From: Acidobacteriota bacterium
GTDB taxonomy: Bacteria; Acidobacteriota; Vicinamibacteria; Vicinamibacterales; UBA2999
DNA length: 64,000 nt
Direction of reading: 5' to 3'
NCBI GenBank assembly: GCA_013140775.1
Contig: JABFSA010000003.1
Location: 12,704-76,703 of the forward strand
The notes beneath the pieces were generated by a model. It saw nothing but the letters and a program-made list of their open reading frames with translations, was not told where the DNA came from and searched no databases. A program made the position numbers and the translations under genes. Numbering within the stretch: the stretch's first letter is position 1; every line of letters starts with the position of its first letter. Positions 60,704-61,969 of the stretch are shown here, one piece after another.

Positions 60704-61969
60704 GTGAACGAACCCACCGTATCCCTCGACCTCCCCGCGCTCCTCGATCGGTACTCCTATCGCTATCCGTCGTACCTCATCGACACGGTCACTGACCACA
60801 CGGTCGGTTCCAGGGTGGTCGCGATCAAGAGCGTCACCGTCAACGAAGAGTTTTTCCAGGGGCATTTCCCTGGCACTCCGCTCATGCCGGGCGTGCTGAT
60901 GATCGAGGCGCTTGCCCAGGCAGCGGCGTTATTGCTGAACGCGTCCGACGTGCCGGGGACGTCGCGTGTCTGGCTCAGGGGCGTGAACAACGCCAAGTTC
61001 AGGCGTCAGGTGGTGCCGGGCGATCAACTCCGTCTGGAAGTGCAACTTGCGCGCGTGCGTTCGCGGCTGGCCAAGGTGCGCGCAACCGCGTTCGTTGACG
61101 ACCAGCCCGTTGCCGAGGCCGACCTCCTGCTCGGAATCGAGAAGGGGGCTGCGTTCATCGACCCCAGGGCCGTCGTACATCCAGAGGCGCGCATCGGTGC
61201 CGGAACCACGATTGGACCCTATTGCACGATAGGTCGAGAGGTCGTCATTGGAGAACGCTGCCAGATTGGCGCCTCCGTCGTCATCGACGGCTGGACGGAG
61301 ATCGGCGATGACACGCGGATCTTCCCGATGGCGTCGATCGGCATGGCGCCGCAGGACCTCAAGTACAAGGGAGAGCGCACCAGGTTGACCATCGGCCGGC
61401 GAAATACGTTCCGGGAGTTTGTCACGGTCAACAGGGGGACTCATGGCGGGGGAGGGGCGACGGCCATCGGCGACGGAAACCTGTTCATGGCCTACGCACA
61501 TGTGGCCCACGATTGCCATGTTGGCAACGCCACAATTTTCGGGAACGGCGCGACTCTCGGTGGCCACGTGACGGTCGAGGATTTCGCCACGGTTAGCGCC
61601 TACTCGGGTGTTCACCCGTTCTGTCGTGTCGGCCGCCACGCCTACGTGGGCGGGTATTCCGTCGTCACGAAAGACGCGCTGCCGTTTGGAAAATCGGTCG
61701 GAAACCGCGCACGAACCTACGGTCTCAACACGATAGGGCTCGTGCGCCGCGGCTTCTCCACGGACACGATCGACCAACTGAAGCGGGCCTATCGATACCT
61801 GCTGCAGTCCAAGCTCAACGCGTCTCGCGCGCTCGTTCAGATCGAACAGGATCCGCGGCTCACCTCCCCGGAGGTCAGATATCTCGTGGACTTCATTCGT
61901 GGATCGCAGCGGGGCGTCATTCTGCGCCGGCCGGCTCGAAGGGCCGAAGGGCCCGTCGCCGATGAATAG
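60704..61969 (+). CDS. lpxA: Fusion: 3-hydroxyacyl-ACP dehydratase FabZ + UDP-GlcNAc acyltransferase LpxA
   Basis: FFQGHFP...[11 protein letters not shown]...[12 protein letters not shown] (FabZ), then hexapeptide repeats, [26 protein letters not shown] and [10 protein letters not shown] (LpxA) in one frame. Confidence 0.92.

Follow-up and report, generated by a model that had tools for sequence, protein, structure and literature searches.

We identified a gene in which the coding sequences of FabZ and LpxA are joined in one reading frame. It lies in a 64,000-nucleotide stretch of contig JABFSA010000003.1 (positions 12,704 to 76,703; GenBank assembly GCA_013140775.1) from a soil acidobacterium of the class Vicinamibacteria. 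We will call this whole stretch the window, and coordinates are those of the window unless another sequence is named. From sequence comparisons, we think it likely that the fused gene (60704-61969, forward strand) encodes a bifunctional FabZ-LpxA protein, with both activities on one chain, and that the join was inherited from the ancestor of the class. The FabZ half would be a dehydratase of 3-hydroxyacyl-ACP (ACP is acyl carrier protein), and probably the only canonical one in the cell; the LpxA half would be the UDP-N-acetylglucosamine (UDP-GlcNAc) acyltransferase that starts lipid A synthesis.

The fused gene and its domains

The fused gene is a single uninterrupted open reading frame (ORF) with a GTG start and 421 codons followed by a stop. 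We assigned it from the ORF listing, from matches above the cut-offs of both domain families, and from fused homologs. The NCBIfam model for FabZ, NF000582, matches amino acids 18-142 with 145.9 bits (the cut-off is 113). The NCBIfam model for LpxA, NF003657, matches amino acids 150-407 with 345 bits (cut-off 226), and a second LpxA model, TIGR01852, scores 311.5 bits (cut-off 231.05). In Pfam, FabA covers amino acids 25-139 (PF07977, 102.6 bits versus a cut-off of 23), and it is joined by four Hexapep stretches and by Acetyltransf_11 at amino acids 324-406 (PF13720, 80.5 bits). A complete FabZ spans residues 17-146, and a complete LpxA spans residues 149-407.

An earlier note, made from the letters of the window alone, had described a FabZ domain that runs directly into LpxA near position 61150. 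The single ORF and the family matches bear this out, and the boundaries can be placed precisely. The FabZ hot-dog domain (amino acids 1-146, 60704-61141) is supported by the match to NF000582, by alignment to FabZ structures, by its invariant catalytic residues, and by a structural model (see below). The last strand of FabZ ends near amino acid 146, and amino acid 149 aligns with residue 5 of E. coli LpxA; therefore, only about five residues (EKGAA) are free. From this alignment and count of linker residues, we place the junction at amino acids 147-151 (61142-61156). The left-handed beta-helix of LpxA follows (amino acids 152-322, 61157-61669), as shown by NF003657, TIGR01852, and alignment to E. 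coli LpxA (1lxa). The helical C-terminal domain of LpxA, or Acetyltransf_11, covers amino acids 323-407 (61670-61924) and is supported by PF13720 and by modeled helices at 343-400.

Between codons 125 and 209, the fused gene has no in-frame ATG, GTG, or TTG, so a separate and complete LpxA cannot be initiated. Since LpxA is not made without FabZ, the two competing enzymes are made strictly 1:1 and held together.

Both halves retain their active sites

The FabZ half can be aligned to the solved structures of FabZ from E. coli, Burkholderia, and P. aeruginosa. The catalytic residues that the earlier note had picked out by motif, a histidine in GHFP (His54, codon 60863-60865) and a glutamate in IEALAQ (Glu68, codon 60905-60907), align with His54 and Glu68 of E. 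coli FabZ (6n3p), and they also align to 4h4g and 1u1z.

Across the beta-helix, the LpxA half can be aligned gap-free to E. coli LpxA (1lxa). Its catalytic His269 and Asp270 (61508-61513) correspond to His125 and Asp126 of the E. coli enzyme. Of the E. coli residues that we compared, Q73, K76, H122, H125, D126, H144, H160, G173, and R204 are present, and the last of these lies in an RRGF motif in the C-terminal domain. The sole differing position is H191, which is an arginine here. Glycine is retained at the "ruler" position (G173), which by itself does not reveal the acyl-chain or sugar-nucleotide specificity.

To describe conservation, we used an alignment of 40 fused proteins, with identities down to 54%. 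The invariant residues include G53-H54-F55-P56 and Glu68 in FabZ and Q217, H266, H269, D270, H288, H304, and R348 in LpxA; K220 of LpxA is nearly invariant. The mean pairwise identity of the fused proteins is 0.65 in FabZ, 0.72 in the beta-helix, and 0.66 in the C-terminal domain. These values are similar, so the FabZ half seems to be under constraint comparable to that on the LpxA half. We considered whether the FabZ domain might be inactive or drifting, as the earlier note had allowed, and we reject an inactive domain because its catalytic residues are invariant. Since the active sites are complete in each half, both activities most likely reside on a single chain.

The N-terminal motif of FabZ has changed. 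The earlier note had remarked on SYRYP in place of the usual PHRYP, and we find SYRYP at amino acids 18-22. The consensus for the order is xYRYPS, and the deepest members of the fused group (G059 and L075) still have QYPFVLVDR. To judge from these sequences, the SYRYPS form is derived within the order.

The fusion is found throughout the Vicinamibacteria

We examined the distribution of the fusion in 200 sampled genomes of Acidobacteriota: 15 from the same order, 1 from another order of the same class, and 184 from the rest of the phylum. (The 184 include three unpublished genomes, G024, G049, and G152, which are all unfused; our conclusions are the same without them.) A full-length match with no stop is present in 14 of the 15 genomes from the same order and in the one genome from the other order, or 15/16 for the class. 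The exception, G086, is a draft genome in 400 contigs in which no LpxA was found at all. None of the 184 Acidobacteriota genomes from outside the Vicinamibacteria has a stop-free, full-length FabZ-LpxA match. In 18 of these (~10%), both halves are found in the same frame, interrupted by 1-3 stops; the others match only the LpxA half.

We also examined 60 related loci, which are from metagenome-assembled genomes (MAGs) that are named as Vicinamibacterales, Vicinamibacteria, Luteitalea sp., or "Acidobacteria bacterium." A single open frame extends across the entire match in 58 of the 60. The stop between the domains that the earlier note had asked about is thus absent both here and in relatives. 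Across 20 more distant loci from other phyla, a stop separates fabZ (or lpxC-fabZ) from lpxA, and the genes on either side of it are mostly in the same frame.

Among 5.8 billion proteins, clustered at 90% identity, we found more than 120 clusters of fused proteins with 75-94% identity and lengths of 414-445 amino acids. The earlier note had suggested a search for proteins that combine FabA/FabZ, Hexapep, and Acetyltransf_11, and all of these clusters do have both PF07977 and PF13720. Where a name is given, it is "acyl-ACP--UDP-N-acetylglucosamine O-acyltransferase," and the source is Acidobacteria or Vicinamibacterales.

When a tree of FabZ domains was inferred by maximum likelihood, the fused domains grouped together as one clade (support 98/86). 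As judged by synteny, the fused domain is the ortholog of the fabZ that adjoins lpxA. The simplest history is that the stop codon of fabZ was lost in an ancestor of the Vicinamibacteria: in that ancestor, fabZ and lpxA would have lain side by side, as they still do in other Acidobacteriota, the stop separating them would have disappeared before the class diversified, and the join would have been inherited since.

Fusions in other lineages

Among representatives at 50% identity, there are about 15 full-length fused forms with 37-53% identity. One of these is from Candidatus Margulisiibacteriota (P0273, at locus L122), where the gene order is skp-lpxD-...-lpxC-fusion-lpxB. Two further lineages with a fusion (L123 and L125) have the order bamA-skp-(lpxC)-fusion-lpxI-Gfo/Idh/MocA-lpxB-msbA. 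The join had a separate origin in Margulisiibacteriota and probably also in Elusimicrobiota, the commonest phylum of a fused cluster from the ESM Atlas. Another genome, G229, has the fusion as well as a normal second FabZ; the tree gives its fused FabZ domain no firm position.

Within the Acidobacteriota, a MAG from the Acidobacteriaceae (G230, locus L084:5977-7284) encodes a fused fabZ-lpxA with a long linker that is rich in Ala, Gly, and Pro and resembles a spacer that is being read through. This is the only FabA-family match in G230. The fused FabZ hardly differs from the FabZ of G111, an unfused relative, so the join either happened very recently or reflects a sequencing error (the MAG is from long reads). 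In the tree, the FabZ of G230 clusters with an unfused FabZ and lies outside the Vicinamibacteria clade, which implies that at least some of the joins were separate events.

The fusions from other phyla (P0273, the Elusimicrobiota cluster, G229, and P0125, which is described next) have the same domain order as the fusion from the window and have intact motifs. They differ in that their identity to it is only 40-47%, and G229 and G230 retain the canonical LPHRYPFLLVD.

P0125 has the arrangement FabZ-FabZ-LpxA. This protein of 586 amino acids is encoded on one 2.2-kb Logan contig, and both copies of FabZ retain GHFP and the catalytic glutamate. It is a singleton and may be a product of assembly.

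A second FabZ-like protein

Only two FabA-family matches were found in the genome assembly, which is 94% complete: the fused gene and a stand-alone paralog. The paralog is on contig C164 (L002:1450-1911, minus strand), is 153 amino acids long, and matches NF000582 above the cut-off (134.8 bits). It keeps LPHRYPFLLVDR and the glutamate, and FFQGHFPG is replaced by a different loop, so that GHFP is lost. A nearby histidine that might substitute is missing from about a third of 19 orthologs (L102-L120), which are otherwise well conserved (68-82% identity). By eye, the paralog appears to be flanked by genes for a hybrid histidine kinase and for a divergent GAF-PP2C phosphatase.

The paralog is found in all 16 of the sampled genomes from the class (57-82% identity), and almost all genomes of the order contain just two such genes, the fused gene and the paralog. 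In most other Acidobacteriota, there is one FabZ, and it adjoins lpxA. The clade of the paralog is sister to a group of paralogs from an unfused family of acidobacteria (support 100/99), which lack the histidine. Because the sister lineage occurs where there is no fusion, the paralog did not arise as a by-product of the fusion. We also rejected a specific link between the fusion and the paralog, since the lineage of the paralog is present in the unfused family, the second FabZ of G229 is normal, and G230 has no second FabZ.

The paralog may have a regulatory role, or it may serve as a non-catalytic hot-dog partner. Since the only other FabZ-like gene that we found lacks a conserved catalytic histidine, it is probably the fused domain that serves as the housekeeping, canonical dehydratase of the cell, as far as can be predicted from these sequences.

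Assembly and consequences of the fusion

FabZ and LpxA both use R-3-hydroxyacyl-ACP (PMC3087551, PMC12444477), which agrees with the competition for this substrate that the earlier note took as its starting point. The balance between the two enzymes is critical in E. coli (PMC12444477). Tethering FabZ to LpxA may alter how acyl-ACP is split between phospholipids and lipid A, or the tethering may merely be tolerated.

Each active site of FabZ is formed by the histidine of one subunit and the glutamate of its dimer partner, and the FabZ hexamer is a trimer of dimers. LpxA is a homotrimer, with its active sites between the subunits. Because FabZ needs a dimer, LpxA needs a trimer, and the tether is short, the fused chains should form a larger assembly in which FabZ and LpxA share a three-fold axis. 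The simplest such assembly would be LpxA3-FabZ6-LpxA3. Three copies of the FabZ-FabZ-LpxA protein P0125 would have six FabZ domains per LpxA trimer, which fits with a shared three-fold axis. Among the solved structures that we searched, no chain in the Protein Data Bank has both FabZ and LpxA domains.

We built a single-chain model with AlphaFold2 from the 40 fused sequences. The model has a hot-dog domain, a left-handed beta-helix, and a helical C-terminal domain. Within FabZ, a helix at 63-79 is wrapped by strands at 28-43 and 88-146, and the predicted local distance difference test score (pLDDT) is at least 90 for most of residues 95-140.

Several results weigh against the proposed bifunctional protein. 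First, the score for TIGR01750 (fabZ) is 143 bits, just below its cut-off of 155.15. Second, another FabZ could have been missed, given the completeness of the genome. Third, the mean pLDDT of the model is 74 and its predicted template modeling score is 0.52, with no confident packing between FabZ and LpxA, so the model gives no reliable arrangement of the domains. Fourth, the number of free residues in the linker varies between about 5 and about 33, and the linker sequence is not conserved. The spacing from L141 (invariant) to A156 (nearly invariant) is 14 residues in 23 of 39 sequences and ranges from 13 to 42; some relatives have up to 28 extra residues, and these are unrelated to each other. 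Such a variable linker fits better with a loose tether than with a designed interface. Finally, where the two genes are in frame, one point mutation is enough to join them; together with the recurrence of the join and the variability of the linker, this makes a near-neutral origin and retention plausible.

It is accordingly possible, although we would not bet on it, that the fusion is a frozen accident: a stop was lost between neighbors that were in frame, the tethered pair works like the separate enzymes with no effect on flux, and the join is harmless. The ~10% of unfused Acidobacteriota in which fabZ and lpxA are in frame and 1-3 stops apart, the recurrence of the join in several phyla, the apparently very recent case at L084, and the variable linker with no confident packing across it would all be expected. 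On the other hand, the fusion has been retained without reversal across the class, in proteins down to 48-54% identity, the junction is minimal in 23 of the 39 sequences, and the N-terminal motif of FabZ was altered after the fusion, which hints at adaptation of the assembly.

A stronger claim, which we consider rather unlikely, is that the fusion is an architectural device in which the assembly itself sets the ratio of phospholipid to lipid A. The particle would be either LpxA3-FabZ6-LpxA3 or one with C3 symmetry in which the His-poor paralog caps each fused FabZ domain. If so, a single docking region for ACP would feed either active site, without control of LpxC of the FtsH/LapB type. There is a precedent for non-catalytic partners in mycobacteria, where HadA and HadC play this role for HadB. 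An exclusive heterodimer of the fused domain and the paralog is argued against by the invariance of Glu68 in the fused domain, and we keep it only as a case of low probability.

We think it improbable that the fused FabZ domain is a docking, sensing, or buffering module that holds acyl-ACP for LpxA, with bulk dehydration carried out by the paralog or by another enzyme. The paralog does score above the FabZ cut-off and is in every sampled genome of the class, and it keeps the canonical LPHRYPFLLVDR from which the fused N-terminal motif departs. However, the fused domain invariantly keeps His54, Glu68, and the whole 13-residue motif, and it is by synteny the ortholog of the fabZ beside lpxA, while the paralog has lost GHFP, lacks the nearby histidine in about a third of its members, and has relatives in an unfused family.

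It is slightly harder still to credit post-translational cleavage at the linker, which would release ordinary FabZ hexamers and LpxA trimers, so that the fusion would only enforce equimolar synthesis. The linker is exposed, varies, and can be long, and pLDDT is low around residues 151-160; but there is no conserved protease site, the linker most often offers no more than about five free residues, and we found no precedent in the literature that we searched.

Last, we dismiss an artefact of assembly or sequencing, such as a missed stop or a frameshift that merges two genes: although the genome is a draft in 183 contigs and some isolated fused calls elsewhere look erroneous (P0126, which is frameshifted, L079, and L084), the same uninterrupted frame recurs in over 100 independent assemblies, which come from many projects and include complete genomes in a single contig, and this recurrence excludes chance or artefact.

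Comparison to known systems

Separate fabZ and lpxA genes are found in E. coli, P. aeruginosa, the majority of Gram-negative bacteria, and the other Acidobacteriota. The two halves of the fusion are orthologous to these, are in the same order, and have identical catalytic residues. The LpxA half is ~50% identical to the solved E. coli enzyme (E = 2e-68), the FabZ half matches with E = 5e-30, and the competition for R-3-hydroxyacyl-ACP is shared (PMC3087551, PMC12444477). In many bacteria, these genes lie in a compact lpxD-fabZ-lpxA-lpxB cluster. Here, by contrast, there is no stop or separate start between fabZ and lpxA, the product is one chain of 46 kDa, and the lipid A genes are scattered, with lpxD, lpxB, and lpxC encoded elsewhere.

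The familiar fusion of FabZ, as the earlier note correctly stated, is LpxC/FabZ (NF009667/PRK13188), which is found in Bacteroidota, Chlorobi, and Verrucomicrobia (Opiyo et al. 2010, PMC3087551). In both cases, FabZ is fused to an early enzyme of lipid A synthesis that is encoded by a neighboring gene, and the fatty acid and lipid A branches are coupled. The partner and the order differ: LpxC/FabZ has a deacetylase, LpxC, as the partner and carries FabZ at the C terminus, whereas in the present fusion FabZ is at the N terminus and is joined to an acyltransferase, LpxA, which directly competes for the substrate of FabZ. Only positions 320-461 of NF009667 match the fused protein (139.1 bits, versus a cut-off of 465). 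Since this is just the FabZ end of the profile, the fusion is not the known LpxC/FabZ protein.

In E. coli, the scaffold protein LapB (YciM) gathers FabZ, LpxA, LpxC, and LpxD (PMC13477621, PMC12444477). This scaffold resembles the fusion in that FabZ and LpxA are brought into one complex at the branch point. But the complex with LapB is non-covalent, regulated, and tied to the proteolysis of LpxC by FtsH, while the fusion is covalent and would fix the ratio at 1:1.

We found no description of a natural FabZ-LpxA protein in the full-text literature that we searched, which did not cover most subscription journals. The "fabZ-lpxA" of PMC12152623 is a rescue plasmid with two genes. FabZ-LpxA is thus apparently an undescribed, conserved combination of two well-known enzymes, and not a new kind of system.

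In E. coli, the balance between FabZ and LpxA is vital and is maintained by an elaborate proteolytic circuit. An entire class of abundant soil bacteria seems instead to hard-wire the two enzymes at 1:1, which makes the fusion a natural experiment on how the balance of membrane lipids is set. By the gene-fusion ("Rosetta stone") argument, it also supports direct functional contact between FabZ and LpxA in other bacteria. A practical consequence concerns annotation. Databases label the fused protein as LpxA only, so metabolic reconstructions of Vicinamibacteria will misreport FabZ as missing or will select the His-poor paralog.

Gene neighborhood

All of the neighboring genes described here, except for the lipoprotein gene below, are on the forward strand, as is the fused gene. 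Upstream are bamA (56624-59410; five POTRA domains and an Omp85 barrel, as identified with Pfam) and, directly before the fused gene, the gene for the chaperone Skp/OmpH (59853-60554; PF03938, 92.6 bits). Between skp and the fused gene, a consensus scan, which is the only basis for this feature, identified a terminator-like hairpin with a 16-bp stem and a T-rich tail (60588-60623). The hairpin is a likely terminator or attenuator that would divide a bamA-skp unit from the genes downstream, and it suggests that the fused gene starts its own transcription unit, or one that is reached only by attenuated read-through.

Downstream is lpxI (61973-62824), which encodes UDP-2,3-diacylglucosamine hydrolase (it matches LpxI_N and LpxI_C) and starts 3 nucleotides past the fused gene's stop codon. 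Next comes a gene for an oxidoreductase of the Gfo/Idh/MocA family (62821-63786, identified with Pfam), which overlaps the stop of lpxI by 4 nucleotides, is coupled to lpxI in translation, and most resembles GnnA (UDP-GlcNAc 3-dehydrogenase). Given the upstream hairpin, the spacing of lpxI, and this overlap, the fused gene probably heads a unit of three genes.

The GnnA-like protein scores 204.5 bits against NF040723, which is under the cut-off of 450. Its presence hints at lipid A that contains 2,3-diamino-glucose (GlcN3N), in which case LpxA would form an amide. There are four genes for DegT-family aminotransferases elsewhere in the genome, none of which was identified as a partner for the GnnA-like protein.

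Two of the three loci from other phyla that we examined (L123 and L125) share the BamA-Skp-fusion-LpxI-Gfo/Idh/MocA-LpxB cluster, with the same Gfo/Idh/MocA gene after lpxI. The difference is that lpxB follows the Gfo/Idh/MocA gene in those lineages and is on a separate contig here. The earlier note had reported that lpxD is absent from this locus, and indeed lpxD is on contig C140, with lpxB, and lpxC is on contig C137. Within this genome (G000), lpxB is cut by the end of C140, and lpxC stands alone on C137.

Between bamA and skp, on the reverse strand, is a gene for a predicted lipoprotein of 142 amino acids (59412-59840), with a signal peptide and an LLAGC lipobox. The ORF of 333 amino acids that was listed there overlaps skp, and the part upstream of the lipoprotein's methionine is probably spurious.

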